Shown here: piece after piece, positions 10,626-28,429 of the stretch | Layout: every line of letters starts with the position of its first letter | How positions within the stretch are numbered: position 1 is the stretch's first letter | Virus record (IMG/VR): IMGVR_UViG_3300033069_000592 | Coordinates: 400-64,399 of that record | Origin: a virus | Taxonomy: Duplodnaviria > Caudoviricetes | Strand: one strand, 5' to 3' | DNA: 64,000 bases | Notes under the pieces: generated by a model | The model's input: the letters and a program-made list of their open reading frames with translations, nothing else | Database searches by the model: none | Told to the model about the DNA's origin: nothing | Translations under genes and position numbers: made by a program

Positions 10626-10636
10626 CTTCCCGCAAC

Positions 10637-12305: not shown

Positions 12306-12317
12306 GACTGTTCTCCA

Positions 12318-12368
12318 GTTGCGACATTGCAACGGAGACACAATAACGAATTGACGTTAAGAAGTCAA
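12318..12368 (-). promoter_or_regulatory. sigma70-type promoter with +1 hairpin
   Basis: TTGACT-17nt-TATTGT-6nt-GTTGC AATGTC GCAAC-TGGAG. Confidence 0.75.
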
Positions 12369-12668
12369 CCCGACAATTCTCAGATTAAGAGGGTAGTCAT
12401 CCGCCGGCGGATATGATAGCCAGGGTCGCGGGTAAGGTGTTCCATGGGGAACCACAGGGATCATAGTAAAGAAAGGGACGCCTAGTCGAGTATTGATCGC
12501 AACCTCACCTGCTGCCATGCGTTGCTCAAAGGCCATGACAAGCTCAAACCCAACGGCTTGACTTACGGGACAAGCTAGGCCGGGATAGACTACAAAATAA
12601 AGGCCGAGCGCCGAACGGTACTCGACCTCCACTTCTTGGCCAACCAGCTCAAGCTTAAGAATTCCCAT
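12357..12668 (-). CDS. Hypothetical protein
   Basis: ORF track; purine-rich SD-like run upstream; atypical codon usage. Confidence 0.45.
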   Translation of the reverse strand: MGILKLELVGQEVEVEYRSALGLYFVVYPGLACPVSQAVGFELVMAFEQRMAAGEVAINTRLGVPFFTMIPVVPHGTPYPRPWLSYPPADDYPLNLRIVGLTS

Positions 12669-12756
12669 CCCCTTGTCCCTTCAGCCACTTGCCCAACAAG
12701 ATGCCGGCAGGGATGGCAGCCACCCAATACAAAGCGAACCATCCCCGCCCGGACAT
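12655..12756 (-). CDS. 33-aa single-pass membrane peptide (not in ORF track)
   Basis: TGATG overlap with upstream gene; MSGRGWFALYWVAAIPAGILLGKWLKGQGDGNS. Confidence 0.55.
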   Translation of the reverse strand: MSGRGWFALYWVAAIPAGILLGKWLKGQGDGNS

Positions 12757-12998
12757 CACTCTGGATCCTCGTCCAGCTCATCCCGGTTTTCGATCTTGGA
12801 CTTCTTGAGCAGTCGGTTGTGAAGCTTGGCAATCTGCTTGGCAACCTTGCGCTGCTTGGCGGGAGTCGGGAAGTCGGCATCATCATCGGCTTCGCCCGCA
12901 CAGTAGTCGTCGTAGCGCAGCTCGATAGCATCGAGTGCGACTTCATAGGCCTTGCGGCCCGGCGTCATCTTGACGACGGCTTTCGGCTTCTTCGCCAT
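12756..12998 (-). CDS. Hypothetical protein
   Basis: TAATG overlap; typical codon usage. Confidence 0.7.
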   Translation of the reverse strand: MAKKPKAVVKMTPGRKAYEVALDAIELRYDDYCAGEADDDADFPTPAKQRKVAKQIAKLHNRLLKKSKIENRDELDEDPE

Positions 12999-13156
12999 TA
13001 CTTCGCTTCCTTCACTTCGACGGTAATGGCCTTCGGAGCCCCGTCCTTGAACGCCGATTTCTTGATGTAGAGCGACGGGATCGGCGCGTTGTCCTCGTCG
13101 TTCTTGAAGACGAAGGTGCCCTTCGTTTCACGTTCGATCTTCAGGGTGGTCTTCAT
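12998..13156 (-). CDS. 52-aa hypothetical protein (not in ORF track)
   Basis: GAGGG SD; MKTTLKIERETKGTFVFKNDEDNAPIPSLYIKKSAFKDGAPKAITVEVKEAK; highly biased codons. Confidence 0.75.
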   Translation of the reverse strand: MKTTLKIERETKGTFVFKNDEDNAPIPSLYIKKSAFKDGAPKAITVEVKEAK

Positions 13157-13185
13157 CGTATGTCCCTCGTTGTTTAGACAGAGGC

Positions 13186-13214
13186 ATTATCAATCATTCA
13201 TTGCCACCTGTCAA
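13186..13214 (-). promoter_or_regulatory. sigma70-type promoter
   Basis: TTGACA-17nt-GATAAT. Confidence 0.65.
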
Positions 13215-14044
13215 CGCACCACTTCCGCGGGTAGCATTTTGCGGTACTGGATCCACCCATCGAAGTTCCCGTGGAGGTGGGGCTCATACCAATGATGAAC
13301 CTTATGAACCTTAGCAATCAGCCGGTCCGGCGTTGCCTGGTGCTCGGCCGGCGAAGCGTGAACCGGGCGACTGACAACCAGCTTCTCATACCGAGCAATC
13401 TCAGCGTTGACGTCCGCCTCACCGTCGAACGGCTTGTAGCTGAGTCGGGCGCATCGGGCCACAGACATCATCTGGAGGGTATTCAAGCCCCAACGCCCGT
13501 CGGCTTCCCAGTCGCTGATGTAGGGCAGGTGCCACTCACCGTGGTGCAGCAGCTTCGGGGTGCTCGAGTCCATGGCGTTCTTCATCGCCGTCGCCAGCTG
13601 GTCGAACTCAGGCTGAGCATACGGACTGATCCGAAGCTCAAAAAAGTTCTTCCATCGGGTAGCCGTCACCAGAACGTCAATCCACCCAAACCACTCGAGC
13701 GGCCGATTGGCCCATTGCTTGTGCATACCCTCGGCCTGCCAGTGTTCGACCTGATCGCGGCAGATCTGGGCTAGGCGTTCCCACTCATCCGCCCACTTCC
13801 GCTGAAGATGGTCGGGCGCCCGAATTTCGGATTGCATACCCGGCTTGTTCATGCCGAACTCGGGCACGAAGATCTGCTCGGTCAACAAGACCTTGCTCGG
13901 TACTGCACGACTGCTGCGAGCATTACGGCTGAAGTCTCGATGAGTCATCAGCTCCGAGTGGATCGCTCGCCAATAGCGAAGGTGAAAGGTGGTCAGCCGG
14001 ATGCCTTCGGGGCTGATGCTGTCGAGAATGATGTTGGCGAACAC
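13211..14044 (-). CDS. thyX: Flavin-dependent thymidylate synthase (ThyX-like), GTG start at 14044
   Basis: HSELMTHRDFSRNARSSRAVP, HKQWANRPLE, NFFELR...AQPE; SD AAGGAAG. Confidence 0.85.
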   Translation of the reverse strand: MFANIILDSISPEGIRLTTFHLRYWRAIHSELMTHRDFSRNARSSRAVPSKVLLTEQIFVPEFGMNKPGMQSEIRAPDHLQRKWADEWERLAQICRDQVEHWQAEGMHKQWANRPLEWFGWIDVLVTATRWKNFFELRISPYAQPEFDQLATAMKNAMDSSTPKLLHHGEWHLPYISDWEADGRWGLNTLQMMSVARCARLSYKPFDGEADVNAEIARYEKLVVSRPVHASPAEHQATPDRLIAKVHKVHHWYEPHLHGNFDGWIQYRKMLPAEVVR

Positions 14045-14045
14045 T

Positions 14046-14454: not shown

Positions 14455-14702
14455 GACAGGGGATCCTTACAGGGTTTGGCTTCGTGGGTATGGCGGTACT
14501 GGTTGACGAACCGGTCTCGATTGGCCTGGCCTTCGAAGACATAGACCCGAGTCCCGCGCTCAAAGACCATACTCATCCAGTGACCGTAGGAGTCGTGGCT
14601 GATATACTCCTGCTTCAGCGGTGTAGAGGCTTGAGCGTAGTGCGGGTCTTGGTACTTCTTGACCTTCTGACGCCACAGGTTCACCTGGTCTCGGTAGCTC
14701 AT
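14451..14702 (-). CDS. Hypothetical protein
   Basis: ATGA overlaps at both ends. Confidence 0.65.
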   Translation of the reverse strand: MSYRDQVNLWRQKVKKYQDPHYAQASTPLKQEYISHDSYGHWMSMVFERGTRVYVFEGQANRDRFVNQYRHTHEAKPCKDPLS

Positions 14703-14992
14703 GGCTTTTCTCCTCGACAACGGTTAGGGGTCTTGGTCCACCGAGGGTCTTTCACGCAGACCTTGACGGATTGATCGCACACGGAGTCATAGCGGATAAC
14801 CGGGTAAGCACCGCCCGGAGCACCGCCACCGCTCGGACTTGTCTCCATCGAGACGTAGGGCTCCTCATGGCTCTTGATGCACCTGCTCTCCCAACGGGGA
14901 GGTTGAGGGATTGAGGCCACATAGACCATCAGGGCGAAGGCCCCCAGGGGTATCCCAATGAAGATCAGGGTATCGGGCCTAGGAAGTCTCAT
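14699..14992 (-). CDS. Membrane-anchored hypothetical protein
   Basis: N-terminal hydrophobic helix LIFIGIPLGAFALMVYVASI; Cys-containing C-terminus. Confidence 0.6.
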   Translation of the reverse strand: MRLPRPDTLIFIGIPLGAFALMVYVASIPQPPRWESRCIKSHEEPYVSMETSPSGGGAPGGAYPVIRYDSVCDQSVKVCVKDPRWTKTPNRCRGEKP

Positions 14993-15180
14993 CTTTTCCT
15001 CGCATACTTGATGACCAGAGTGTAGAGCTCGAAGTCATCGGGCTTCCTTCGGTTGTTGCCAGTGACCTGAGTGATATGGGCGTTGCCCTTCTCTACGTCA
15101 TCCGCAAGTCGGCGGAGCTGACGGATAACCTCGGCCGGCTCAATGCCAACGCGGAAAGTCTTAGCGGCTGGCTTTCTCAC
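14989..15180 (-). CDS. Hypothetical protein
   Basis: 4-nt overlaps with both neighbours. Confidence 0.6.
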   Translation of the reverse strand: MRKPAAKTFRVGIEPAEVIRQLRRLADDVEKGNAHITQVTGNNRRKPDDFELYTLVIKYARKR

Positions 15181-15455
15181 ACCAGATACCTTTCCAAAAA
15201 GTACAAAGCTGCCCCGTTCATAAGGCAGCGCCGAAAATCGACGGGCAATAGGCGCCGGTTCAGTCGCCGCTCGGTGCAGCCGATACAGAGCACCTCATCC
15301 TTGCGAGCGATGCTAAGCCACACTGGGTCCTTGAGCATGGGAGCGTCAGCGCCCCAGCCACAGTCAGCGCATCGGTAGCGATGGCTCTTGGGCTCGATCT
15401 TGCTGTAGATTTCCTGTGGAGTAGCGAGCATCGGCTTCTTCACGCGATCCTCCAT
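15177..15455 (-). CDS. Small Zn-binding protein
   Basis: CADC ... LCIGCTERRLNRRL. Confidence 0.65.
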   Translation of the reverse strand: MEDRVKKPMLATPQEIYSKIEPKSHRYRCADCGWGADAPMLKDPVWLSIARKDEVLCIGCTERRLNRRLLPVDFRRCLMNGAALYFLERYLV

Positions 15456-15640
15456 ACCATAAGAATGCCGCCTTCATACAGAGTGCGGTAGCGTCTGCCG
15501 GCAGCGTTGTTCTTGTTGATCGAGTAGATACGGCCCCTGATGGTCTTACACTCCTTCAGGTTGACCTCGTACTCGGTGGCCTTGCTCAGCGAGATATTGA
15601 GCAGGTCATGATCTGTGGGGATAGTGCGTATCGCTGCCAT
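15440..15640 (-). CDS. Hypothetical protein
   Basis: TGATG overlap. Confidence 0.65.
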   Translation of the reverse strand: MAAIRTIPTDHDLLNISLSKATEYEVNLKECKTIRGRIYSINKNNAAGRRYRTLYEGGILMVWRIA

Positions 15641-15912
15641 CAGTTGAGGTCCTTCTTGTCGAGCGGCTTGTCCTCGGTCATCTTGAGGTTGTAGCCGTGA
15701 AGGATATTCGCGCTGGCGGTCATCATGCCGTCAGTCAGCTCGAGGGTGGACGAAGCGATCACCACGCCGATCATACGGCCGAGCATCGCAAGGTGAACGA
15801 GCGGGCCAAGCTCCATATGCTCGGACAGGGCGGTAGCCATCGCGTGCTCCAGCTTTTCCATCTCAGGCGAAGCTTCGACAAACGCGGCCATGATCTGAGG
15901 GTCGTCAGACAT
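15640..15912 (-). CDS. Hypothetical protein
   Basis: SD AAGGA; promoter upstream. Confidence 0.7.
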   Translation of the reverse strand: MSDDPQIMAAFVEASPEMEKLEHAMATALSEHMELGPLVHLAMLGRMIGVVIASSTLELTDGMMTASANILHGYNLKMTEDKPLDKKDLN

Positions 15913-15938
15913 AACGTGTTCCTTGTTGTGGTGATGTC

Positions 15939-15967
15939 ATTATATGACGACGAGGAGTGGGACGCAA
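15939..15967 (-). promoter_or_regulatory. sigma70-type promoter
   Basis: TTGCGT-17nt-TATAAT. Confidence 0.75.
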
Positions 15968-15972
15968 CTCTC

Positions 15973-16179
15973 TTATGCTTCGAAGTAGTTGCCGTCGGGA
16001 TCGAACAGAACATCGTCGTGGATAAAGGCCACAGGGCTCAGGTCAAGTGTAGAGTCTTTGCGGGGGTCGAACTTGCACAGGCCGAACGTCGGAGGATTGA
16101 CAGGCCACTTGTCCATCTCAGTGGGTGTGAGAGGACGCAGGATCAGCGGGGTATTCATGATAGTAGAAAGCTTGGTCAT
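15973..16179 (-). CDS. Hypothetical protein (start uncertain)
   Basis: ORF track frame; Met candidates at 16179 and 16158. Confidence 0.5.
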   Translation of the reverse strand: MTKLSTIMNTPLILRPLTPTEMDKWPVNPPTFGLCKFDPRKDSTLDLSPVAFIHDDVLFDPDGNYFEA

Positions 16180-16241
16180 TGATAGCGCTCCGGCAGTGGT
16201 GGAAGTGTATTGTCGCACTGCCGGAGCTGGTGTTCAACTGC

Positions 16242-16667
16242 TCAATGCCGGCGCTTGGTACGCGGCAGCTGAACGAGCCAGGATCCTTTGCCGTTCTGGA
16301 CCGCGCAGGTATCAGCAAGCATCATGCTGAACTCCCGGATCCCGCGGAACTCCTTGTGGGATCGAGTGCTGAACTTGAAGTACTGGAAGCCATCCAGCTG
16401 TAGCTGAGGGAAGATGATCAGCTCGGGCTTGTCCCGGCGCTCAGGCGGAATGTCCTCTTCCATATGCTGAGGAGTGATAATCCGGACGTGCGGCCAGGGG
16501 AGAACCTTCGACTCACGATGGAATGACCACAGGATCGCGCCGGAAGGTGAGAGGGTCTCGGAGAGCGAGGAGAGTGGGGAGACCTTGAGAGTTAGGATGC
16601 CATTGTTATGGGAGAGGGCGTAGGGAGAGACCTGGTTAGGGGTTGGAAGAAGGGTCTGGTTCATCAT
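16242..16667 (-). CDS. Hypothetical protein
   Basis: SD AGGAG and promoter upstream. Confidence 0.65.
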   Translation of the reverse strand: MMNQTLLPTPNQVSPYALSHNNGILTLKVSPLSSLSETLSPSGAILWSFHRESKVLPWPHVRIITPQHMEEDIPPERRDKPELIIFPQLQLDGFQYFKFSTRSHKEFRGIREFSMMLADTCAVQNGKGSWLVQLPRTKRRH

Positions 16668-16691
16668 CGTTCTCCTAGGTTAGGATCGGTG

Positions 16692-16720
16692 ATGATCGCA
16701 TCGGTGGACTAGTCTGTCAA
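16692..16720 (-). promoter_or_regulatory. sigma70-type promoter
   Basis: TTGACA-17nt-GATCAT. Confidence 0.55.
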
Positions 16721-16848
16721 CTCGATTAGCCTTTCAATCAATTACGTGACTCCATAAACCTTAGAAATATGGATATGGACCAGGTCAGTGATACATACAA
16801 AAATCGCGGAATTTTATTACGTCGGTGTTTAATGAAATTACATTAATA

Positions 16849-16886
16849 AAACGTTGCGATTGTATGTTTACATTATCGCAACGTTT
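16849..16886 (-). terminator. Terminator-like hairpin after the 99-aa gene
   Basis: Perfect 12-bp inverted repeat AAACGTTGCGAT (16849-16860) / ATCGCAACGTTT (16875-16886), followed on the minus strand by a T/A-rich run. Confidence 0.65.
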
Positions 16887-16900
16887 CATGTCATCGCGCG

Positions 16901-17200
16901 TTATTCCGCATCGACGTTTTCGCGCGTTGTCGCGTCATTCTTTTTCGTCGTGCGCTTTTTCGCGTTTTCGATGCGTTGCGCGTAACGCGCGTCGAATGCG
17001 CAACGAATTGCGTCGTATTCACGCGAATTGTTTGCAATCCATGACGTGTTTTTGACATGCGATTGCGCAAACGCGACGCGCAATTTCGCGCGAATCTTTT
17101 TCGCGTTGTCGTCGATGATCGTTTTTTCACGCATCGCGTCATCGATGATCGTTTTCAAAACGATTGGAAACGCGCGCGTTTTCGTGTTTGACTTCGACAT
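16901..17200 (-). CDS. 99-aa basic protein encoded almost without CC/CT/GG/AG (probable family member 5)
   Basis: SD AAGGAA before ATG 17200 (MSKSNTKT); KKIRAKLR...SW resembles KIARAKLR...SW of the 27653 protein. Confidence 0.75.
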   Translation of the reverse strand: MSKSNTKTRAFPIVLKTIIDDAMREKTIIDDNAKKIRAKLRVAFAQSHVKNTSWIANNSREYDAIRCAFDARYAQRIENAKKRTTKKNDATTRENVDAE

Positions 17201-17224
17201 TTCGTTTATTCCTTTTTTCATCGA

Positions 17225-17281
17225 ATCGCGTGATTGCGTTTTCGATGTCATGAATATGCGCGCAAACGTTTAATAAATCAA
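17225..17281 (-). promoter_or_regulatory. sigma70-type promoter with leader motif
   Basis: TTGATT-17nt-CATATT; leader contains AACGC AATCAC GCGAT. Confidence 0.6.
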
Positions 17282-17347
17282 TAACGTGATGAAAAATTAT
17301 TTGTTTCATTTTGACACAACCCATAATTAACAAACAAGGTTAACAAA

Positions 17348-17446
17348 TTAACCATATTTCTTAACCATATTTCTTAACCCTATTTCTTAACCATACTTGT
17401 TAACCATTAATGTTAATGATTAATTCTTTAACCATATTTGTTAACC
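17348..17446. repeat. AT-rich tandem array of 13-bp TTAACCATATTTC-type units
   Basis: Units start at 17348, 17361, 17374, 17387, 17400, 17428 and (partial) 17441; five contain exact TTAACCAT. Confidence 0.95.
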
Positions 17447-17628
17447 AAGAGTTTCTCCAGCCATGGCCCAACCACGGACGGCCCAACCAAAGCCGACCCA
17501 ATTACTGCTACCCATCCATACAGTCTCTACCTATGCGAGGCTGGCCAGCCCACCCTTGCGCTATGCCGTAAGCCCCTGAGGACCTACGGCTTCGTATTAA
17601 GGGTTCATCATCGGGCATGGTCAGTTCC

Positions 17629-17832
17629 TCAGTTGGCACGGGCGTGATCGAAACGCATCATCCAATTGGCCACACGGGCATTGTCGGCCAGGATCGCACG
17701 ATCATGGGCACGGCGAACGGCATTGCGTTGGTCGGCGATTGCACGGACGCACTCGGAGACACGCTTGCGGCGTTCGAGACCCATGCGACGGCAGAGCTCG
17801 CGGCGATCACGTTCGAGGTTGGCTTCAATCAT
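17629..17832 (-). CDS. 67-aa Arg-rich hypothetical protein
   Basis: Promoter and GGAA SD upstream; helical R-rich sequence. Confidence 0.6.
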   Translation of the reverse strand: MIEANLERDRRELCRRMGLERRKRVSECVRAIADQRNAVRRAHDRAILADNARVANWMMRFDHARAN

Positions 17833-17864
17833 CGTTCATTTCCGTTCGTCGTTTCGATGAATAC

Positions 17865-17892
17865 ATAATAACGCAAACGAATTATGGTACAA
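17865..17892 (-). promoter_or_regulatory. sigma70-type promoter
   Basis: TTGTAC-16nt-TATTAT. Confidence 0.55.
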
Positions 17893-17923
17893 CCGTTTCA
17901 ATCCGTCTCGCTTCGCGAGTTTT

Positions 17924-18006
17924 CTGGCTTGGCCACTCCAGGGTTCTTACGATTAGATCTCTGGCTTGGCCATGGTCCATGGGTGGACCAACCCCTGGCT
18001 TGGCCA
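17924..18006. repeat. Three direct copies of CTGGCTTGGCCA
   Basis: Exact 12-mers at 17924, 17961 and 17995 in non-coding DNA. Confidence 0.9.
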
Positions 18007-18157
18007 GACTTTGGCTGGACCAGCTTTCCGCAGAAAATCTTCAGCGCTCTTCTCCGCGAAAGACAGCATGGCTCCGCAACTCTCTGGATGGTCCACCCAT
18101 CTACGCAGTACCAGATAGCGCCTGTAAGCCCACATGAGCCCACAGACGCTTCTAGTG

Positions 18158-18412
18158 TCAGAGACGCTCGACTCCGTGAAGGTCCTCGTGGACGCGATCA
18201 TAGGGAGCCTCGAAATAAATATCCACGTCATCCCCATCGAGATGGTAACGGACCAGATTTACATGGTCCCGGTTGCAGTCGAGCTCGTCGCGCATATCAT
18301 TGAGCAGCTCGCCCCAAGTAAACCTCACGGCCGCGTCAATATCCGTGGTTTCGGCCAGGTCGATTGCATCGGAGACGTCGAAGGCTCCCCGCATAACATA
18401 TTGCGTCATCAT
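18158..18412 (-). CDS. Acidic hypothetical protein
   Basis: SD GGAGG; typical codon usage. Confidence 0.65.
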   Translation of the reverse strand: MMTQYVMRGAFDVSDAIDLAETTDIDAAVRFTWGELLNDMRDELDCNRDHVNLVRYHLDGDDVDIYFEAPYDRVHEDLHGVERL

Positions 18413-18486
18413 GGCTCAATCCTCCGTTTCGTCGTCATCGAGATCGGCTGCATCGAGCCAGGTTACGATATTATCAATGTTAATAA

Positions 18487-18633
18487 TCATGAGAAGAACT
18501 CCTTGATTGCGGTCAGCGCCTCGATCAGCGATCCCGCAAATTCATCGCGGTCAGGGTGGCTTTCGATTATTTCAATGGCGTCGCTCAGGGCAAGAGGCAC
18601 ATCGTAGAGAGCCTTGAGTTCGGAGAGAGTCAT
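18487..18633 (-). CDS. 48-aa hypothetical protein
   Basis: GAGG SD before MTLSELKALY; promoter upstream. Confidence 0.6.
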   Translation of the reverse strand: MTLSELKALYDVPLALSDAIEIIESHPDRDEFAGSLIEALTAIKEFFS

Positions 18634-18653
18634 GGTAAGCCTCGATTCATGTG

Positions 18654-18706
18654 ATCGCGTAATTGCATCACGTAAAAACATTACGACATGAGCCTCTCGG
18701 AGACAA
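18654..18706 (-). promoter_or_regulatory. sigma70-type promoter with +1 hairpin variant
   Basis: TTGTCT-17nt-TAATGT then GATGC AATTAC GCGATC. Confidence 0.55.
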
Positions 18707-18934
18707 CACCCAAATTCTGCTCTAACTCTCTGGACCGGCCAGTCTCTTAGCTATTTACGGTAGATCTAAATCTTTAACGTAATTGAGTGTATCTACTAGT
18801 CTATCCGCATACCCTCCTACGCGGTCTCTAGTCTCATGTAATTACGTCAGACTCTTAGAGCGTGGCTCTGAGCTGGTCCGGCTGGCCCTTTCCTCCCCTT
18901 TTTCCGGATCCTCACCACCCAAAATCAAGGCTCG

Positions 18935-19110: not shown

Positions 19111-19127
19111 AACCAAAGGATACCCAC

Positions 19128-21200: not shown

Positions 21201-21340
21201 ACAGGCTCCACGATGATGAAACGGGTTTTGGGATCGATGGCGACGGGTCGGTAGAAGTCCGTCGGTGTGGCGATGAGGATCTCGTCGATGTCTTCGAGTT
21301 CAGAGGCTTCGAGCAGCTCGATGAGTTCACGCTTGGTCAT
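21197..21340 (-). CDS. 47-aa hypothetical protein (not in ORF track)
   Basis: MTKRELIELLEASELEDIDEILIATPTDFYRPVAIDPKTRFIIVEPV; ATGA overlaps on both sides. Confidence 0.65.
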   Translation of the reverse strand: MTKRELIELLEASELEDIDEILIATPTDFYRPVAIDPKTRFIIVEPV

Positions 21341-21681
21341 TGGCCATATTCCTCATGACCGGGGATCGTGAAGGTGTCGCAGTGCTTATCAAGCTTCACC
21401 CGTTCCCAGTCCTCCTCCGTGATAGGCTCCATGCCGTCATTCAGCATATTGTAGCCGTAGTGGGCCATCGATGAGCCGTCGCGGTAGTCGCGGCCACCGC
21501 GGTCGGGCGACTGGGACAGGTCGAGCATCTCGATGAGGCCGGAGCTGTTTTTCCACCCGACCAAGCAGTAATGGTAATTTTCCTTGATGCGGTCAATGGC
21601 GTTGATGACGCGGGTATCGAGGCCGTAAGCTTCAAGATAAGCAAACAGCTTCGGGTGAGTTTCTTGATTACACCTGGTCAT
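21337..21681 (-). CDS. Hypothetical protein (start at 21681)
   Basis: GGGAGGG SD before MTRCNQET. Confidence 0.65.
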   Translation of the reverse strand: MTRCNQETHPKLFAYLEAYGLDTRVINAIDRIKENYHYCLVGWKNSSGLIEMLDLSQSPDRGGRDYRDGSSMAHYGYNMLNDGMEPITEEDWERVKLDKHCDTFTIPGHEEYGQ

Positions 21682-21964
21682 GAACCCTCCCCATTTCTTC
21701 GACGAGTGCCTCGAGCGACTCGTAGCTGTTGAACGTATACCAGGGCTCATTACATACCCCGTTGAAGTTCCCCTCGCCGATATTGATGTCTTGAACATCG
21801 AAGTACCGATGGCCGTCAAAGACCACAGCGCAGTCGAGGTAGCCATCGAAGAGATAGCCGAGGGTGGGATGACCGCGCGGCCCGTCGACCAGTCGGACGT
21901 TATTAATCATGCGGTCGAGGCAGCGGTGCTGAGAGGTCAGCTCGATGAAGCGATCAGGCGTCAT
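21668..21964 (-). CDS. Hypothetical protein, paralogue of 20880-21200
   Basis: YLFDGYLDCAVVFD...YFDV motif. Confidence 0.7.
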   Translation of the reverse strand: MTPDRFIELTSQHRCLDRMINNVRLVDGPRGHPTLGYLFDGYLDCAVVFDGHRYFDVQDINIGEGNFNGVCNEPWYTFNSYESLEALVEEMGRVHDQV

Positions 21965-22223
21965 AGCTCAGCGGCTCCTGTGCGATGTCGGCTTTGGCGA
22001 TGATCGAGTGCCTGACGGACGAGCGCTTCTTGTTGTAGGCTTCGATGCCCTTGGCTTCGGTGTTGCAGTACCGACCCCAGAAATACTCGGTCGGCTTGGT
22101 CGAACGGGGAGCGCGGACGAAGTGATGAGCGACAAACTCGCCGTTGTCATATTGGCGGAGGATGACTCCTCCCGGCCGTGTCGCAGCGTCACCGCGCGTG
22201 TAGGTGATTTTGAGAATGGTCAT
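21954..22223 (-). CDS. Hypothetical protein
   Basis: Overlapping early operon. Confidence 0.7.
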   Translation of the reverse strand: MTILKITYTRGDAATRPGGVILRQYDNGEFVAHHFVRAPRSTKPTEYFWGRYCNTEAKGIEAYNKKRSSVRHSIIAKADIAQEPLSYDA

Positions 22224-22486
22224 TCGGTCTCTCCCGGGAAAGGAAGGGTGAGGACGCGGCCGGTATCGAAGCTTTCAAACACGAACCATTCAGCATCGCT
22301 GTCGCCCATGTTGTCCTCGGTCTGCCAGAACTCAAGGTCGTCATTACCGAGTTGAAAGCTCAGAGTCAGGCAGTCGGCGTCATTCGATCCCACCCAAAAG
22401 TCGGCCAGGTCGGGAAAATACCGACGCATTTCAGCTTCAAGGTGAGCTTCGAGAACATCGTCCAATTCAAGGTCGGCTTTTTTCAT
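22220..22486 (-). CDS. Acidic hypothetical protein
   Basis: SD GGAGG before MKKADLE. Confidence 0.7.
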   Translation of the reverse strand: MKKADLELDDVLEAHLEAEMRRYFPDLADFWVGSNDADCLTLSFQLGNDDLEFWQTEDNMGDSDAEWFVFESFDTGRVLTLPFPGETE

Positions 22487-22496
22487 GATTTCCTCC

Positions 22497-22547
22497 ATCG
22501 CGTCATTGCGATGTTATGACAATACGATGATGGTTGCCGCGAGTCAA
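22497..22547 (-). promoter_or_regulatory. sigma70-type promoter with +1 hairpin
   Basis: TTGACT-17nt-TATTGT-6nt-ATCGC AATGAC GCGAT-GGAGG. Confidence 0.8.
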
Positions 22548-22568
22548 CGACCCGCGACTTCCATATTC

Positions 22569-23135
22569 TCAAAGATCAATCGGCTGGTTGTCGGCCAGGC
22601 AATCGAGAAGAGCATTGCTCAGGGTAACCTGACCCGACTTGGCCAGTGCCTCAACGAGCTCGCGGACCTGCTTGCGAGTGCCTCGCAGCTGAACGACCAT
22701 CTGTTCGGCCTCCCGCAGGCTGTCAAGGTGCTTCGCGCCGTGCTCGGTCAGCACGAAACGCTTGGCCTTGGTGCGAGCCACGAGCTCATCAGCCAGCAGG
22801 TCGATCAAGAATACGGTCGAAGCCTTGCTGGCCAGTGTGGGATCCCAGCCGTTCGGGTTGGCGTTGGCGATCTCACGGAGGAGATCATCGGCCGATGAGA
22901 TACGGTGCTGGCGTTCCTTGAAGGGATAGTCGAGCTCGAAGACTCGAAAGATCTCCTTGACCGTTGCCGCGCCCGTATTGGGCAGACGGGAGAAATGGTC
23001 ATAGACGACATCGGGATTGGCCTTGAAAGCCTTCTTGAGTTCCTCGACGCCAGTGTAGCTCGAATTGACCATCGCCGTAACGGCGCGGGTGGAAAGGTTG
23101 TAGCCCTTCAGGTCGGATCGTGCGATGCCCGTCAT
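22569..23135 (-). CDS. Protein with N-terminal RNA polymerase alpha-CTD-like (HhH) domain
   Basis: NLSTRAVTAMVNSSYTGVEEL...RLPNTGAATVKEI parallels the alpha-CTD LSVRSANCL...KTPNLGKKSLTEI pattern. Confidence 0.6.
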   Translation of the reverse strand: MTGIARSDLKGYNLSTRAVTAMVNSSYTGVEELKKAFKANPDVVYDHFSRLPNTGAATVKEIFRVFELDYPFKERQHRISSADDLLREIANANPNGWDPTLASKASTVFLIDLLADELVARTKAKRFVLTEHGAKHLDSLREAEQMVVQLRGTRKQVRELVEALAKSGQVTLSNALLDCLADNQPIDL

Positions 23136-23530
23136 GCCTTGTCTCCCCAGGAACGAACCCAGACGATTGCAACGCCCGGTTCAAGCTCAGAGACAGCAAG
23201 ACCGTCATCGCCATCGCCGATCAGCCACTTGTAACCTCCGCAGACGAAGTCGCACTGACCCTCGGGCTCATGGGTGCAGTAATGGTCGAGGATGCGAGCC
23301 ATATAGCCGTAACGGCCGTATTCGCCGCCGCGCCCGATCATCGAGATGCTGTTGGCGTTGTCATGCACCCAACGATAGCCCTCGTAGGTCAGGGCTACGA
23401 CGAGGTTGATGCCCATGACATGGGGGGTGATGTCAAAGGCGGTGTAATCGAAGACGACGCGGCCGGCCAGTTCGGGATGGCGTTCGAGGATCGCGGCGGC
23501 TGCGGCGTCACGGAGTTCAGCGTTTCGCAT
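23132..23530 (-). CDS. Hypothetical protein
   Basis: GGAG SD; promoter upstream. Confidence 0.7.
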   Translation of the reverse strand: MRNAELRDAAAAAILERHPELAGRVVFDYTAFDITPHVMGINLVVALTYEGYRWVHDNANSISMIGRGGEYGRYGYMARILDHYCTHEPEGQCDFVCGGYKWLIGDGDDGLAVSELEPGVAIVWVRSWGDKA

Positions 23531-23542
23531 TGTTCATTCTCC

Positions 23543-23593
23543 ATCGCGTTATTGCGATGACATATAAATACGCGCTGGCATTTCCGCAATCAA
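23543..23593 (-). promoter_or_regulatory. sigma70-type promoter with +1 hairpin
   Basis: TTGATT-17nt-TATTTA-6nt-ATCGC AATAAC GCGAT-GGAG. Confidence 0.75.
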
Positions 23594-23606
23594 CCGAAAC
23601 GGTCTA

Positions 23607-23768
23607 TCAAAAACCGATAGAGTTTTCGAGGGGCTTGCGCTCATGCTCAATCACCATGGATCGGTCGAGAACCTTAACGCTGATGACCTCCCGGTGTGCG
23701 AGCTCACGCTCGAGGAAAGCTTGAGCCTGCTTGGTGGGAAGGTGGAGTGGAACAAAGAGCTGCGTCAT
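23607..23768 (-). CDS. 53-aa hypothetical protein (not in ORF track)
   Basis: MTQLFVPLHLPTKQAQAFLERELAHREVISVKVLDRSMVIEHERKPLENSIGF directly after the 23772 stop. Confidence 0.55.
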   Translation of the reverse strand: MTQLFVPLHLPTKQAQAFLERELAHREVISVKVLDRSMVIEHERKPLENSIGF

Positions 23769-23771
23769 GGT

Positions 23772-24092
23772 TCAGGCCTTCATGTGGCTGATGTCTGCGG
23801 CGATGATCGTCCGCAGCCATTCGTTGTGGGAGTATTGTGCGGCGAAGGCTTCGAGGCCGGCTTCCTGGATCTGTCGTTCCCAGCTCTGTGCTTCTTCGCC
23901 GAACATGGTCTCATGCTCATCGGACTCGATGATGCCGCTGGCCAGGTTACAGACCTCGGAGTAAGCGTCGGTCGACCAGCCCCAGCGGGTGCTGATAACC
24001 TGCTCCACAGATACGTTAAGGCCGAGCTGGCCATAGTTGCTGATCGCCATTGCCGCGGCTGCGCGGGCTACCTTGCGTGGATCGTCGGTCAT
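23772..24092 (-). CDS. Hypothetical protein
   Basis: ATGA overlap. Confidence 0.7.
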   Translation of the reverse strand: MTDDPRKVARAAAAMAISNYGQLGLNVSVEQVISTRWGWSTDAYSEVCNLASGIIESDEHETMFGEEAQSWERQIQEAGLEAFAAQYSHNEWLRTIIAADISHMKA

Positions 24093-24304
24093 AGGGAAAC
24101 TACCTCATAGGTATATTGGCCATACATTCGGCACATGCCGGTCTTGAAACGGCTGGCGTCATTTCGGCTGCGGAACAAAGCCTCCACAGAGCCGGGGAGG
24201 CGGACGGAAACATCGCGGGCGACGATCACGGCGTAGCTGAAGCCCATTTTCTTCAGCGCCTTGATCTGGTCGGGTGTCATACGGATTGCGGGAAGGTTGT
24301 TCAT
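24089..24304 (-). CDS. Hypothetical protein
   Basis: ATGA overlaps. Confidence 0.65.
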   Translation of the reverse strand: MNNLPAIRMTPDQIKALKKMGFSYAVIVARDVSVRLPGSVEALFRSRNDASRFKTGMCRMYGQYTYEVVSL

Positions 24305-24489
24305 GCGGCTACGAGCTCCTCGAGGTCACGGGACTCCTCAGCGCAGCCCATCAAGAAGAACACTTCCTCCTGGCGGGTGTCACAGAACTTGAGAGCCTCG
24401 TCAAGGTTTTGGGGAAGGCCGCCGGCAATGACGTATTCCTTGCCGCACTCAAAGGCGCTGCGACAGCCATCGTTCGGAAAGATCCTCAT
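24301..24489 (-). CDS. Cys-containing hypothetical protein
   Basis: Fills the operon gap; ATGA overlap downstream. Confidence 0.55.
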   Translation of the reverse strand: MRIFPNDGCRSAFECGKEYVIAGGLPQNLDEALKFCDTRQEEVFFLMGCAEESRDLEELVAA

Positions 24490-24492
24490 CGT

Positions 24493-24702
24493 TCAGCCCT
24501 CCACCTTGTGGAACTTGCCGTCATCCTTCAGCTGATAGCGCTGACCGAAGCCGGTTCCATAGCGCACACCTTCGGACTTGGCGCAGTCGAGGCAGACGTT
24601 GCCCCAGCGAGCGAAGCGCGGGATTTTCGCATCGGCGAAGTCGGTGTCGAGATTGGCATGGCAGAGGTCACACTCGGCCGGCGGATTGAGGTAGGTCGTC
24701 AT
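24493..24702 (-). CDS. Small Zn-finger protein
   Basis: CDLC ... WGNVCLDC ... GTGFGQRY; GGAG SD. Confidence 0.75.
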   Translation of the reverse strand: MTTYLNPPAECDLCHANLDTDFADAKIPRFARWGNVCLDCAKSEGVRYGTGFGQRYQLKDDGKFHKVEG

Positions 24703-24712
24703 CGTTGTCTCC

Positions 24713-24763
24713 ATCGCGTTGTTGCGATACGGGCATTATATGATGATGGGTGCTATGACGCAA
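24713..24763 (-). promoter_or_regulatory. sigma70-type promoter with +1 hairpin
   Basis: TTGCGT-17nt-TATAAT-6nt-ATCGC AACAAC GCGAT-GGAG. Confidence 0.85.
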
Positions 24764-24784
24764 CACCCATCATCTTGATTGTTC

Positions 24785-25309
24785 TTAGAGCCAGCGGTCC
24801 ATGTATTCCCGGCCGCGTTCAGTAACACCGCGCTCATCCAGAAGAGCGAAGCGCAAGGCGTACTTGACGTGGTCTTCAATATCGACGCCGGCTGCACCCA
24901 TGTTAGCCTTGAGCTCTTCAAGCTCAACTGCGTTACCCCAGTGAAGCAACACTCGGCAGGTGTCTTCGGGGTCAGTGTCAGCGTAGCCGATAAGCTCGAG
25001 GAGGTCTTCGCCGTCCAGCATATCGTGGGCGTGTTCTTTGGCGGAGTCGCGGACTTCCTCGATCATCATTTCGACCATACGGTTCTGCTCATCCACGGTG
25101 AACAGCTCAGACCGCCACAGAGGTGTGGGCCGGTCACCTGGGGCCCGTTCAAGGTTTTCTTGAACGAAATCAACCAGACGGCTAAGCACCTCTGTGGGAT
25201 AAGGACCACCGAACTCATCCTCAAGGAACTGCGTAACAAGGTCCAGCATTTCTTTGTCGCTGGTATCGGTTGCTTCCTGGTGAAGCTTAAGTGTTTCTGC
25301 AATGGTCAT
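24785..25309 (-). CDS. Acidic hypothetical protein
   Basis: 174 aa; ATGA overlap. Confidence 0.7.
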   Translation of the reverse strand: MTIAETLKLHQEATDTSDKEMLDLVTQFLEDEFGGPYPTEVLSRLVDFVQENLERAPGDRPTPLWRSELFTVDEQNRMVEMMIEEVRDSAKEHAHDMLDGEDLLELIGYADTDPEDTCRVLLHWGNAVELEELKANMGAAGVDIEDHVKYALRFALLDERGVTERGREYMDRWL

Positions 25310-25530
25310 GCTTCGGTCTCCTGAAGCTTGGCGTCGATGGCTTCGATCATGCCGTCATAGTCGCGAGCTTTGAACTTGCGGCCGGTGAACTGTTCGGCAA
25401 CGCGACGGCAATTGGCCGGGGTGTAGGCGCGGTTCAGTCGCATACCAAGCTTGATGGCCTTGAGTCCTTGCTTGGCAGCAACAGCGGCGATGCGGCCGGG
25501 ATCGGGATTGATGATCGTGAAACCGGTCAT
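25306..25530 (-). CDS. Hypothetical protein (74 aa)
   Basis: GGAG SD before MTGFTIINP. Confidence 0.7.
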   Translation of the reverse strand: MTGFTIINPDPGRIAAVAAKQGLKAIKLGMRLNRAYTPANCRRVAEQFTGRKFKARDYDGMIEAIDAKLQETEA

Positions 25531-25721
25531 TCGTAGTCTCCCAGGATCGAGTTGATAAACTCGTCCGCCTCTTCGGACGATGCGCCCCACGAGCACAGCT
25601 CATCATAGAAGGCGTGCTGATTTTCGCGGCTCATGTTGGAATTGGTGAAAGCTTCATAGGCGGCCGAGAAGGCATCGCCATGGCCATTCGAGTGGATCTT
25701 GTCTTCAAGACTCATTGACAT
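25527..25721 (-). CDS. Hypothetical protein
   Basis: AGGAG SD; promoter upstream. Confidence 0.7.
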   Translation of the reverse strand: MSMSLEDKIHSNGHGDAFSAAYEAFTNSNMSRENQHAFYDELCSWGASSEEADEFINSILGDYE

Positions 25722-25728
25722 TCTCCTG

Positions 25729-25779
25729 GATGCGTCATTGCATCGTCATCATATTGCAACTTGGTTATTCTTAATTCAA
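25729..25779 (-). promoter_or_regulatory. sigma70-type promoter with +1 hairpin
   Basis: TTGAAT-17nt-CAATAT-6nt-GATGC AATGAC GCATC-CAGGAG. Confidence 0.65.
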
Positions 25780-26025
25780 CCGCCTCAGTCTCATGAAACG
25801 CGCCTTTTTGCCATGGAGGTTGGTGAAGAACGCGTGGACAACCACCGGCTCATCGCGGTCATCGAGCTCATACTTAAAAGAAAGCTCACCGATTGCAGGT
25901 CGGTCAGGACGGACAGCTTTGTTGTCGGCGATTTGCTGAACCTGCCCACGCAGTTCTGGCAGGTCGTCGGCCTCAATCGACTGGGGGACTGCGACCATAT
26001 GACTGGTCTCTACATTCCATTTCAT
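25771..26025 (-). CDS. Hypothetical protein
   Basis: Starts immediately after the stop of the 26026 gene. Confidence 0.55.
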   Translation of the reverse strand: MKWNVETSHMVAVPQSIEADDLPELRGQVQQIADNKAVRPDRPAIGELSFKYELDDRDEPVVVHAFFTNLHGKKARFMRLRRLN

Positions 26026-26574
26026 TTAATTGACTCCACAGAGCTTCTTGATAGCATCGACTTCATTTGGCGCGAATGCCCAGCCGTATTCGGGCTTCGG
26101 TCGACCAGACGCGCGCAGTGCTGCTCGTGCGATCATCGGCGGGAGGTCCCAGGCGGTGCACAGCTCGGTGATCGTTCGATAACCGTCAGGACGCTCGGCG
26201 CGCTTCGTGCGCTCGGCCTTGGGGGCTCGTTTTTCAACGGTGGTGCCATCACTGGTGGCACGTTCGCGCGGCGCTTCGTCCCAGGTGCCATATTTGAACT
26301 GAAGGATCCATCGCCGATACTGGTCGGGTAGCTGCCAGTCGTCTTCAGTGACATCGAAGACCTCGTCATATCGGGAACACTTGAGCTGGAAAGGGCCAAC
26401 GTCAATAGCGTCCCGCACGGGGATCAGAGGCTCATTGCCCGCGAAGGTTCGAAGCCAGGTAAGCGCTTTGTAGGCTTGATCGAAGATCACGATATGGACA
26501 CGGTCGTAGGTGTCTGTCGGTCGACGCCCGCGAGCGTAGATCACGAAGCTGTCTTTTGGTGTTTTGTTTCTCAT
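26026..26574 (-). CDS. Putative DNA-binding protein (family member 2; full-length paralogue of 6094-6756)
   Basis: N-terminal FVIYAR...TYD; C-terminal RTITELCTAWDLPPMIARAALRASGRPKPEYGWAF. Confidence 0.7.
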   Translation of the reverse strand: MRNKTPKDSFVIYARGRRPTDTYDRVHIVIFDQAYKALTWLRTFAGNEPLIPVRDAIDVGPFQLKCSRYDEVFDVTEDDWQLPDQYRRWILQFKYGTWDEAPRERATSDGTTVEKRAPKAERTKRAERPDGYRTITELCTAWDLPPMIARAALRASGRPKPEYGWAFAPNEVDAIKKLCGVN

Positions 26575-26580
26575 TGGTTC

Positions 26581-26630
26581 CTCGCGTTGTTGCGATACGT
26601 GAACAATAAACGATTGGACGATGGCGTCAA
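26581..26630 (-). promoter_or_regulatory. sigma70-type promoter with +1 hairpin
   Basis: TTGACG-16nt-TATTGT-6nt-ATCGC AACAAC GCGAG-GA. Confidence 0.75.
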
Positions 26631-26857
26631 CCGCTCCGGGCTTTCATGTCCTTGCGGATTTCCTTGGCGAGCGGTTCCATGAGCATGGACAGGTCCCCGG
26701 TCCGTTCGATCACCTTCTGAGCCAGGGCGTCATTGCATCCCTGCTCAATCAGGATCTTGACGAGGCCAAGGGTGACCTCGTGGTAGATCGCATCCATGCG
26801 GTTGGTGAACATACGGCCGTCGGCCTCGCAGACGTAGGCGGTGATAGCTTTTACCAT
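26627..26857 (-). CDS. Hypothetical protein
   Basis: YVCEADGRMFTNRMDAIYHE. Confidence 0.65.
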   Translation of the reverse strand: MVKAITAYVCEADGRMFTNRMDAIYHEVTLGLVKILIEQGCNDALAQKVIERTGDLSMLMEPLAKEIRKDMKARSG

Positions 26858-26862
26858 GGCGG

Positions 26863-27549
26863 TTACCTCAGCAGATTGTTACGAAGGGGTACCGACTGCC
26901 CGAAGGCTTTGCCGGCGGTGAAGGCGCTTGAACTGTTGACCTTCGCGGATGACTTGCGCGCCTGTCCCAGGTTGAGTCCCAGGTTGGTGCGAATGTAGTC
27001 GAGGTTGCCCTGAGCCTCGTTGTTCCCGAGAACTGCAAGCGCCGTCGACTGTGTGCCGGTCAGCTTCAGGATGGGATCCTTGGAGGCAAGCTGATTGCTG
27101 GGAGCCATCTCCATGCAACGTTGGTAGATCGACTGTGCAGCCCCGGTCATGAACGACCGACCACCCGCGGTGGTGCGGGCTTCCTGCTGAACGGCGCGAA
27201 GCACCATGACCGCGATAGCATGGCAGACCGCCACGTTGCTTTCCTCGCCGACGATGGTGATAGTGTCCGTTCGGCCGTTACGGGTGAAGAACCACTTGCA
27301 GTAGTAGAGGTTCGTGATACCATGAAGGATCATTGAGGACCAAGGCCGCTTGAGCACCTGCAGCGTCTTGTGGGTTCGCCTAACGTCCTTCTCGACGTGT
27401 TCGACTTCGGCTCGTTCGAGATTGTAGCGCTGCATGAGCTCGAGCGCTTTTGCGTTGAAGGCTTCCGCCTCTGCCACAGAGCAGGCGGTATTGTCGGCCT
27501 TCGCAAGGAGCTTCGCAATGCGGTCCTTGATCTTCGCCATGTCTTCCAT
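26863..27549 (-). CDS. DUF2786-type protein
   Basis: KIKDRIAKLLAKA...EAEAFNAKALELMQRYNL; GGAG SD before ATG 27549. Confidence 0.75.
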   Translation of the reverse strand: MEDMAKIKDRIAKLLAKADNTACSVAEAEAFNAKALELMQRYNLERAEVEHVEKDVRRTHKTLQVLKRPWSSMILHGITNLYYCKWFFTRNGRTDTITIVGEESNVAVCHAIAVMVLRAVQQEARTTAGGRSFMTGAAQSIYQRCMEMAPSNQLASKDPILKLTGTQSTALAVLGNNEAQGNLDYIRTNLGLNLGQARKSSAKVNSSSAFTAGKAFGQSVPLRNNLLR

Positions 27550-27561
27550 GCGTATTCTCCA

Positions 27562-27613
27562 GTCGCGTGATTGCGACAATTCATCTTGTAATGAAAAAGG
27601 CACCGGCGATCAA
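27562..27613 (-). promoter_or_regulatory. sigma70-type promoter with +1 hairpin, overlapping a terminator
   Basis: TTGATC-17nt-TACAAG-7nt-GTCGC AATCAC GCGAC-TGGAG. Confidence 0.65.
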
Positions 27614-28336: not shown

Positions 28337-28383
28337 GTGGACGAGTTCCTTCGTGTCGGATGCGTCATTATCGACGCAACGCA

Positions 28384-28412: not shown

Positions 28413-28429
28413 TCGCCTACTTGCCATCA

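Follow-up and report, generated by a model that had tools for sequence, protein, structure and literature searches.

Phage early gene expression is usually explained at the level of the promoter, and the RNA elements closest to the one described here are known from separate systems. The leaders of the E. coli genes ompA and papA reportedly carry 5'-terminal stem-loops that stabilise the mRNA, a finding said to go back to Emory, Bouvet and Belasco in 1992; known 5' stabiliser hairpins need no conserved loop. The T4 gp43 operator consists of a 5-bp stem with the loop AAUAACUC and adjoins the Shine-Dalgarno sequence (SD). PeSL cassettes of T4-like phages comprise a stem-loop upstream of the promoter, which has a terminator role (PMC2839356, PMC4122927). 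Here we analyse positions 400 to 64,399 of the Caudoviricetes record IMGVR_UViG_3300033069_000592 from IMG/VR. This stretch of 64,000 nt, hereafter the window, represents nearly all of the 64,399-bp record, whose completeness is rated 100%, and contains a hairpin that recurs at early promoters. The ingredients of this element are known separately, that is as 5' stabiliser hairpin, as loop-specific phage RNA operator and as reusable early cassette; new is their combination in a multi-copy, clade-wide hairpin with a fixed loop, anchored at the predicted +1 position. The reading that we favour, and consider fairly probable on the basis of the sequence, is that of an RNA feature: a 5'-terminal stem-loop that would shield the 5' end of the mRNA and free the SD, with the loop probably serving as docking site for a factor.

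Comparison with the described systems reveals likenesses as well as differences. As in ompA and papA, the hairpin lies at the extreme 5' end with virtually no unpaired 5' nucleotides and is followed by the ribosome-binding site, and the protection from RppH/RNase E or RNase J that is expected for such an arrangement is the function predicted here. However, the known stabilisers serve single genes and their loop sequence is irrelevant, whereas the phage hairpin has an invariant loop, is present at about ten promoters per genome and is conserved throughout a clade. The coat-protein hairpins of MS2 and PP7 and the T4 gp43 operator are likewise small hairpins located by or overlapping the ribosome-binding site, in which the letters of the loop are the recognition determinant, as may apply here. 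The loop variant AAUAAC may resemble the gp43 loop. These operators each control one gene, whereas the phage hairpin is multi-copy and fixed to the predicted 5' end. The T4 protein RegA does repress many early mRNAs, but its sites are unstructured. The P1 C1 operators and the stoperators of mycobacteriophage L5 share with the hairpin the many copies of a short oriented motif at or after promoters and the prospect of control by one factor; yet, these sites are conserved as duplex sequence and lack pairing covariation, whereas here complementarity is conserved and not the sequence of the arms. The nearest architectural analogue is the PeSL cassette, also a repeated module of stem-loop, sigma-70 early promoter, SD and start codon that flanks variable small early open reading frames (ORFs). 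It differs in that the covarying fixed-loop hairpin described here is located downstream of the promoter, at the predicted +1.

Hairpin cassettes of the early block

Leftward genes on the minus strand span ~30.3 kb down to 9.9 kb of the window and constitute the early block. Ten hairpin sites, seven canonical ones and three variants, are distributed over the minus strand from 12.3 to 28.4 kb. The sites listed by a first-pass annotation of this DNA were all recovered on that strand at the coordinates it had given. Its two variants are real, but their shapes differ from the canonical one: the hairpin near 18654 has a 7-bp stem with a bulged G and that near 17225 carries an added outer stem. The tenth site, at 28361-28378, is new to this analysis. 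At the canonical sites (5' stem bases 27577, 26596, 25744, 24728, 23558, 22512 and 12333, minus strand), a TTGAC-like -35, a spacer of 16-17 nt and a -10 of the TATTGT/TATAAT type precede the stem, which starts 6 nt (in one case 7; 5-7 overall) after the -10, has 5 bp and closes the loop AAYNAC (AATGTC at 12333). GGAG follows 0-3 nt past the stem (GAGGA at 26596), which agrees with the annotated proximity to the SD, and the ATG is found 5-9 nt further. The features are as follows; hairpins are written as 5' arm, loop and 3' arm, and bit scores refer to the covariance model.

28430-30337, minus strand: RepB-primase/AAA helicase gene, first gene of the leftward early block
28334..28415, minus strand: variant cassette of the conserved 227-aa gene; TTGACA-17-TAGTGT; hairpin 28361-28378, UGCGUC-GAUAAU-GACGCA, at the usual distance from the -10 and with the different loop GAUAAU
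27547..27613, minus strand: early cassette 1; -35 TTGATC; hairpin 27562-27577, GTCGC-AATCAC-GCGAC; TGGAG; ATG 27549; 27.7 bits; downstream gene of 228 aa, DUF2786/DUF7168
26572..26630, minus strand: early cassette 2; TTGACG-16-TATTGT; hairpin 26581-26596, ATCGC-AACAAC-GCGAG, outer pair A/G unpaired; GAGGA; ATG 26574; weak match of 12.9 bits; downstream genes of 182 aa and then the conserved 84-aa gene
25713..25779, minus strand: early cassette 3; TTGAAT-17-CAATAT; hairpin 25729-25744, GATGC-AATGAC-GCATC, differing from ATCGC/GCGAT by three compensatory pairs; CAGGAG; ATG 25715; 22.3 bits
24700..24763, minus strand: early cassette 4; TTGCGT-17-TATAAT; 11-bp inverted repeat bracketing the -35; hairpin 24713-24728, ATCGC-AACAAC-GCGAT; GGAG; ATG 24702; 29.7 bits
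23528..23593, minus strand: early cassette 5; TTGATT-17-TATTTA; hairpin 23543-23558, ATCGC-AATAAC-GCGAT; GGAG; ATG 23530; 32.3 bits
22484..22547, minus strand: early cassette 6; TTGACT-17-TATTGT; hairpin 22497-22512, ATCGC-AATGAC-GCGAT; GGAGG; ATG 22486; 32.6 bits
18631..18706, minus strand: variant cassette; hairpin 18651-18671, GUGAUGC-AAUUAC-GC[G]AUCAC, 7-bp stem with a single bulged G; weaker SD GAGG; ATG 18633
17198..17281, minus strand: variant cassette of the conserved 99-aa gene; TTGATT-17-CATATT; extended hairpin 17219-17247 with outer stem CAUCGAA/UUCGAUG and inner CGC-AAUCAC-GCG, a form also present in G002, G003, G006 and G010; AAAGGAA; ATG 17200
12303..12368, minus strand: early cassette 7; TTGACT-17-TATTGT; hairpin 12318-12333, GTTGC-AATGTC-GCAAC; TGGAG; ATG 12305; 22.3 bits; operon of an 88-aa gene, the 127-aa helix-turn-helix (HTH)/Lys-rich protein and DNA ligase

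The core GCAAYNWCGC occurs 12 times in the window as compared to 3.1±1.75 in shuffles, with 10 of the 12 occurrences on the minus strand, and a covariance model built from relatives gave six matches with E <= 8e-4, all of them on the minus strand in the early region. Promoters without hairpin are found within the early block at about 16.7, 16.2, 15.95, 13.2 and 10.6 kb; that is, the element is common, but not universal, among early-block promoters. What the first-pass annotation had called a phage-wide early regulon thus stands as a clade-wide early-gene element, but one limited to the leftward early block, where several promoters do without it. The avoidance of CC, CT, GG and AG, also claimed there, holds in the window, but is broken in relatives (CAGGC/GTCTG; loop AACCAC in L237 and L313). 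A test of this avoidance in the loop was weak (0 of 11 versus 17 of 50, p=0.025), and we reject it as a rule.

Selection on pairing and location at the predicted transcript start

In order to avoid circularity, sites were chosen blind to their stems, i.e. by a TTG 34-36 nt upstream, the loop AAYNAC, and an SD and start codon downstream. This context-only definition yielded 74 distinct sites, 55 of which are paired at all five positions, as compared to 31 of 2135 background loops that lack this context. In the alignment of the 74 sites, 86.9% of the cells are paired, whereas partners slid by 1-3 columns pair at 13-50%. Double-sided, that is compensatory, stem changes number 53 versus 10.2±2.8 in shuffles (0 of 500 shuffles), which bears out the compensatory changes with fixed loop noted at the outset. 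Compensatory variants exist at each of the five pairs: the 5' arm reads ATCGC, GTTGC, GTCGC, GATGC, CATGC, ATTGC, TGTGC, GCGTC, CGCGT or AATGC, and the inner GC/GC is swapped in GCGTC/GACGC and CGCGT/ACGCG. Both interior wobbles are U·G on the sense strand; an interior A·C, equivalent to a wobble on the antisense strand, does not occur, and one U/C mismatch is the only other interior deviation. Promoter spacers and flanks are not conserved between cassettes, whereas the hairpin core is; therefore, the shared hairpin is not the residue of a recent duplication. As complementarity is kept while the arms vary in sequence around an asymmetric and invariant centre, the structure appears to be under selection as a hairpin of single-stranded nucleic acid, RNA being the simplest case, rather than as a plain operator, a conclusion that is well supported in silico.

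An exception to this absence of recent duplication is the related genome G002, in which three 75-nt copies of the cassette, two of them letter-identical, precede different genes (L037, L034), with hairpins at contig positions 64092-64107, 62559-62574 and 1528-1543. These copies indicate recent copying or gene conversion of the module.

The location of the hairpin relative to the promoter is equally constrained. At the sites counted, the first stem base lies 34-36 nt downstream of the point where the TTG of the -35 begins, the distance being 35 nt at five of the seven canonical sites of the window, and the stem starts with the seventh nucleotide after the -10. This is the usual start point of bacterial transcription, which carries the signature pyrimidine at -1 and purine at +1. 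Indeed, 59 of 61 sites start the stem with a purine, and in 51 of 61 a pyrimidine comes immediately before it. Because of the purine, the pyrimidine in front of it and the fixed spacing to the -10, the stem is predicted to begin at +1, in agreement with the first-pass annotation, and the hairpin would occupy positions +1 to +16. A purine at +1 also accounts for an outermost pair that is A-U or G-C and almost never reversed. The register is unchanged in the two extended variants. A -10 lies ~6 nt upstream of all perfect hairpins with an SD and start codon behind them, and none of those checked for use at internal cistrons precedes one; the hairpin is hence always coupled to a promoter, which ties it to the 5' end and not merely to ribosome-binding sites.

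Downstream, the SD starts 0-1 nt past the stem in 42 of 61 sites, and GGAG directly abuts the stem in 31 of 61. When the ten leaders of the window were folded, the hairpin (-5.6 kcal/mol) was present in the minimum free energy (MFE) or centroid fold of every leader, and the SD was unpaired in most of them; in two of the ten MFE folds (23558 and 25744) it paired with coding sequence. RppH requires at least two unpaired 5' nucleotides, and 5'-terminal stem-loops stabilise mRNA (reviewed in PMC3997798).

Under the favoured stem-loop reading, the host RNA polymerase of the sigma-70 type would transcribe the early mRNAs from TTGAC-N17-TATTGT promoters, and the first 16 nt of most of these mRNAs would fold into the 5-bp stem with its six-base loop AAYNAC. 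With the stem at +1 and GGAG 0-3 nt after it, the leader would consist of hairpin, SD, spacer and AUG and no more. The base-paired 5' end would block 5'-end-dependent decay by RppH and RNase E, or by RNase J, so that, going by established knowledge, early messages should live longer. Moreover, the hairpin would lock the upstream leader and prevent its pairing with the following coding sequence, thereby keeping the SD single-stranded and providing a standard, insulated level of translation whatever gene follows. If a factor occupied the loop, its nearness to the SD could allow all early genes to be turned off or on at once. The complete cassette, composed of an inverted repeat bracketing the -35, promoter, hairpin and SD, would represent a portable module around highly variable early ORFs. 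Among the three roles initially proposed for the hairpin, 5'-end protection, here combined with a loop-specific factor, is thus favoured, whereas antitermination of the lambda type is disfavoured, as no boxA was found, the region has a single strong terminator and the clade does not share a small arginine-rich protein of the N type.

The loop, its possible reader and alternative explanations

In the loop counts, positions 1, 2 and 6 never vary and position 5 hardly does; a pyrimidine occupies position 3, and position 4 is unconstrained. This constancy holds across phages whose primase-helicases are 55-69% identical and extends to unrelated contigs. An invariant loop amid drifting stems and surroundings is typical of base-specific contact, from which we infer a trans-acting reader. 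We see a roughly even chance that the invariant loop together with its C-G/G-C closing pairs forms a docking site for a trans-acting factor, most likely a phage-encoded one. The partner of the loop may also be a general component of the host, for instance S1, the ribosome or a ribonuclease.

The search for a phage-encoded partner yielded eight early proteins that were encoded by every hairpin-bearing genome examined and by none of the hairpin-less relatives: a 145-aa protein (9882-10319), DNA ligase, a 52-aa protein, ThyX, a 104-aa protein, and proteins of 127 aa (11548-11931), 99 aa (16901-17200) and 84 aa (25771-26025). The same pattern of co-occurrence is displayed by a 96-aa protein of the virion block (62894-63184). 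The 127-aa protein has an HTH-like N-terminal segment and a lysine-rich tail. Of the regulators nominated by the first-pass annotation, this protein is the one that co-occurs with the hairpin, albeit as a correlation only; the 206-aa protein encoded at 19128 shows patchy and weak conservation, and the 188-aa protein at 22569 has no homologue in any relative. When profiles of the hairpin-tracking families were compared with unrelated cassette contigs, only the 227-aa family (27653-28336) matched, namely the first gene after the hairpin in G014 (E = 3.6e-10); this family is also present in hairpin-less relatives. The Atlas lead for the 227-aa protein is Rho_N, a helix-extension-helix nucleic-acid-binding motif, with a score of 0.82 that falls short of the trust level. 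AF2 models of the 84-aa (pLDDT 90.5) and 99-aa (pLDDT 71) proteins gave no informative match (VIA Z < 5 for both; Foldseek E > 0.3 for the 84-aa model).

Several further observations were made on these proteins. The 84-aa protein is conserved in all hairpin-bearing relatives, where it is often encoded by the first gene after the hairpin, and its model consists of a beta-sheet and one helix with a basic C-terminal strand, RFMRLRR. The basic early proteins encoded at 27653-28336, 26026-26574 and 16901-17200 share the motif (D/E)(I/L)A…(K/R)(I/V)(A)R(A)KLR…W. A kissing RNA was considered as partner as well and rejected: no conserved hairpin with the complementary loop GUNRUU was found, except antisense to the sites themselves.

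A more specific proposal is that the hairpin is the operator of a loop-specific phage-encoded RNA-binding protein that would attach to the extreme 5' end of each early mRNA, next to the SD, and switch translation or stability of the early set in one step. We regard this as possible, but put it forward tentatively; candidates are the 127-aa, 99-aa, 84-aa, 52-aa and 145-aa proteins and the 227-aa family. If true, this arrangement would amount to a structured counterpart, present in multiple copies, of T4 RegA or of the coat-protein operators in double-stranded DNA phages of alphaproteobacteria.

A number of points weigh against the stem-loop reading or against its loop-bound factor. The +1 position is predicted from promoter geometry only, and a stem of 5 bp is only moderately stable. 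The restriction of wobbles to the sense strand is suggestive, but concerns two interior sites and is non-significant. Stabilisation alone leaves the loop unexplained, since the known stabilisers do without a conserved one. The promoter of the 227-aa gene keeps the hairpin in position while its loop drifts (GATAAT, AAAAAC, AATT), as opposed to what a dedicated reader would demand; homologous sites in relatives read GCGTC-AATCAC/AATGAC-GACGC. As unrelated cassette contigs share at most one protein family with the clade, the case for a dedicated phage-encoded partner is weakened, and the co-occurring proteins gave no RNA-binding domain or fold in Pfam, PHROGs and structure searches.

The latter observations lead to the best-surviving alternative, which we nonetheless judge improbable: the hairpin might act exclusively in cis, merely as 5' stabiliser and SD insulator, with its loop unread. 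The loop would then be kept by constraints on the initially transcribed sequence, as an A-rich landing patch for the ribosome or S1, or by concerted evolution of the cassettes. All that supports a 5'-terminal hairpin counts equally for this explanation, and both the drifting loop at the 227-aa promoter and the empty partner search fit it. Hairpin-less leaders of the group also contain AAC-rich tracts before the SD, and the three cassettes of G002 mean that cassettes spread by copying. However, homogenisation would fix stems and spacers too, yet both vary, and a loop with invariant positions next to a free position 4, across phages and unrelated contigs alike, is hard to reconcile with an unread sequence.

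Slightly less probable is a DNA operator, that is, a 5-N6-5 inverted repeat over +1 to +16 that is bound as duplex by a dimeric HTH protein of the phage, for example the 127-aa, 206-aa or 131-aa regulator, for shut-off of early genes. The site overlies the start points of about ten strong promoters, all in need of later silencing, its geometry and the symmetric invariant GC...GC would suit an HTH dimer, the phage encodes several HTH or winged-helix proteins, one of which (127 aa) co-occurs with the motif, and the strict coupling to promoters fits equally well. Nevertheless, the arms covary instead of staying fixed, which makes this explanation unlikely. GATGC/GCATC and ATCGC/GCGAT differ at three positions per arm and are still fully complementary; more generally, the three outer positions of each arm vary and covary, leaving half-sites unconserved across sites. 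Conservation is highest in the asymmetric centre AAYNAC, which always has the sense orientation, the interior deviations represent U·G wobbles of the sense strand, and the first stem position is constrained to purines as in a start site. The statement of the first-pass annotation that this is no plain operator is consistent with these features.

Antitermination in the manner of lambda N, in which a small phage protein binds the nascent hairpin and rides RNA polymerase through terminators, is very improbable. The lambdoid nut boxB hairpins are known to have a 5-bp stem and an A-rich loop of 5-6 nt, to lie promoter-proximally in early transcripts and to be conserved in the loop while variable in the stem, all of which recalls the present hairpin, promoter-proximal in every unit. 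In addition, an arginine-rich protein of 45-49 aa (…LSRRREGEQREQRR…) is encoded by the first gene after the hairpin in three relatives. But boxB is read by the small phage protein N, and no conserved N-like protein was found here: the arginine-rich protein (…TDLSRRREGEQREQRRMFGDVDPQGRRY; L145:6732-6878 in G006, with homologues in G009 and G010, directly after the hairpin cassette) is absent from the window and from the other relatives examined. A nut site also contains boxA, whereas a search for CGCTCTTA-like boxA (YGCTCTTWA with one mismatch) gave 21 matches versus 35 expected, none of them beside a hairpin. There are two nut sites per genome as compared to about ten hairpins, and a hairpin at the predicted +1 that touches the SD is not a nut feature. 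Finally, there seems to be little to override: the 20-kb early block contains one strong intrinsic terminator (27599-27625), and its operons are short, each with its own promoter. Terminator-like (intrinsic) sites number 28 in total versus 19.7±4.2 in shuffles.

Least probable of all is a nuclease tag, in which hairpin plus GGAG would label early mRNAs for cleavage by a phage endoribonuclease, as with T4 RegB, so that early expression ends, or, conversely, mark them as self so that they escape a phage nuclease destroying host mRNA: a common recognisable structure restricted to early leaders and the GGAG directly after the stem in 31 of 61 sites would suit it, but Pfam and PHROGs gave no nuclease candidate among the conserved early proteins, and GGAG, being a common SD genome-wide, does not distinguish early genes. 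A hairpin promoter for a virion RNA polymerase of the N4 type is excluded, as the hairpin lies downstream of a sigma-70-type -35/-10 and has a loop of 6 nt, not 3; PF00940 (single-subunit RNA polymerase) had no match in the genome, a search for which the control genomes were uninformative.

Relatives, neighbouring elements and significance

More than 20 IMG/VR contigs carry the cassette. The exact string TCGCAAYNACGCGATGGAG is present in 20 stretches of ~14 other IMG/VR contigs, several of which are 59-67 kb in length and multi-copy. A profile and alignment search with the primase-helicase recovered 21 loci, whereas a search for related loci with the 228-aa protein alone recovered none. All relatives with at least 55% identity in the primase-helicase have the cassette, in 2-10 copies per contig or fetched stretch; it was not found in relatives with 41-49% identity, nor in Brevundimonas phage Strzyga. 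Full cassettes also exist in unrelated contigs, namely three copies in G014 and one each in G007, G008 and G011, and a wider scan adds a few others. A host regulon was rejected, since the motif was not found in context in the host chromosomes scanned, but in a provirus only: the exact 19-mer gave 99 matches in 596 Gb of bacterial genomes, nearly all of them coding coincidences (e.g. a HRNYAMEY peptide), with the cassette only in a Mesorhizobium provirus, and the 16-mer gave 15 matches in 401 Rhizobiales genomes, in context only in the same provirus. Rfam 15 had 0 matches at gathering score over the whole window, with chance-level hits only in 22.4-27.7 kb, and no description of an equivalent element was found in the literature; as presumed initially, the element cannot be matched to a named system.

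The nearest cultured relatives are the Brevundimonas phages Strzyga and Polewnik (DNA polymerase identity 60%), and the provirus, located in a Mesorhizobium metagenome-assembled genome, is an unrelated contig with the same hairpin motif. For both reasons, the host is likely alphaproteobacterial. About 45 mostly small ORFs follow the primase-helicase gene, and family matches are rare (DUF2786/DUF7168, ThyX, ATP-dependent ligase): Pfam and PHROGs searches of 20 early proteins detected only DUF2786/DUF7168, the primase-helicase, ligase, ThyX, a weak HTH and a winged helix. The early block is hyperplastic at 14700-25700; most ORFs of this region have no homologue in ~12 related genomes, whereas the cassettes between them are conserved, which is compatible with modular shuffling of the PeSL kind. 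The largest ORF of the window (1328 aa) is located within the tail-gene block.

Other leader types were observed as well. In the hairpin-less relatives, early promoters are followed by an unstructured conserved leader, TATGAT-gtcttCATCAAC…AAAGGAC. At 21.2-26.3 kb, Strzyga (L159) has at least eight early promoters TTGAC-N17-TATGAT, then gtcttCATCAAC…AAAGGACAC and no hairpin, and the CATCAAC…AAAGGA leader of G016 resembles that of Strzyga. An alternative class of hairpin was looked for in G016-G018 and Strzyga; none was found, the CATCAAC…AAAGGA leader taking its place. The Strzyga-type leader may be the ancestral type of the wider group. What appears to be a second leader class is located in the window at 10565-10640, where a TATGAT promoter, the direct repeat ACGCA-N4-7-AACGCAA and GGAG, without hairpin, precede a 76-aa gene downstream of ligase; homologous leaders are present in G001, G010 and G012.

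Inverted repeats bracketing the -35, a feature that recalls the PeSL cassettes, reach at least 6 bp in 45% of the cassettes as compared to 17% of shuffles; 17 of 60 have 9 bp or more. TTGA lies in the loop and the 3' arm fills the spacer; examples are found in the window at 27599-27625, 24740-24772 and 22530-22552 and in cassettes of L034, L042, L149, L152 and L178. The intrinsic terminator at 27599-27625, with the -35 of cassette 1 in its loop, is the only bracketing repeat followed by a T-run. These repeats may terminate or insulate the unit in front of them, or else be bound by a regulator. Immediately before the promoter of the 99-aa gene, at 17300-17440, tandem 13-nt units containing GGTTAA (atggttaagaaat…) form an array of low GC content that could be an iteron/origin or a site for a CtrA-like regulator. 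Inside the 99-aa ORF, the plus strand carries the hairpin CGCGC-AATTTC-GCGCG with a T-run (17077-17092), which is conserved in G003 (21436-21451, minus strand) and looks like a terminator for rightward transcription.

As an expression part for alphaproteobacterial hosts, the ~65-bp module, which joins a strong promoter, a 5' protector and an SD, could prove both compact and portable, and covariance model R1 provides a sequence handle for the early regions of related metagenomic phages. Taken together, our analysis suggests that a clade of uncultured phages, probably of alphaproteobacteria, puts a standard RNA module at the start of nearly every early message. If confirmed, this would be a rare natural case in which one structured 5' tag defines a post-transcriptional regulon in a DNA phage, and it would point to an RNA-binding factor that is new to knowledge.

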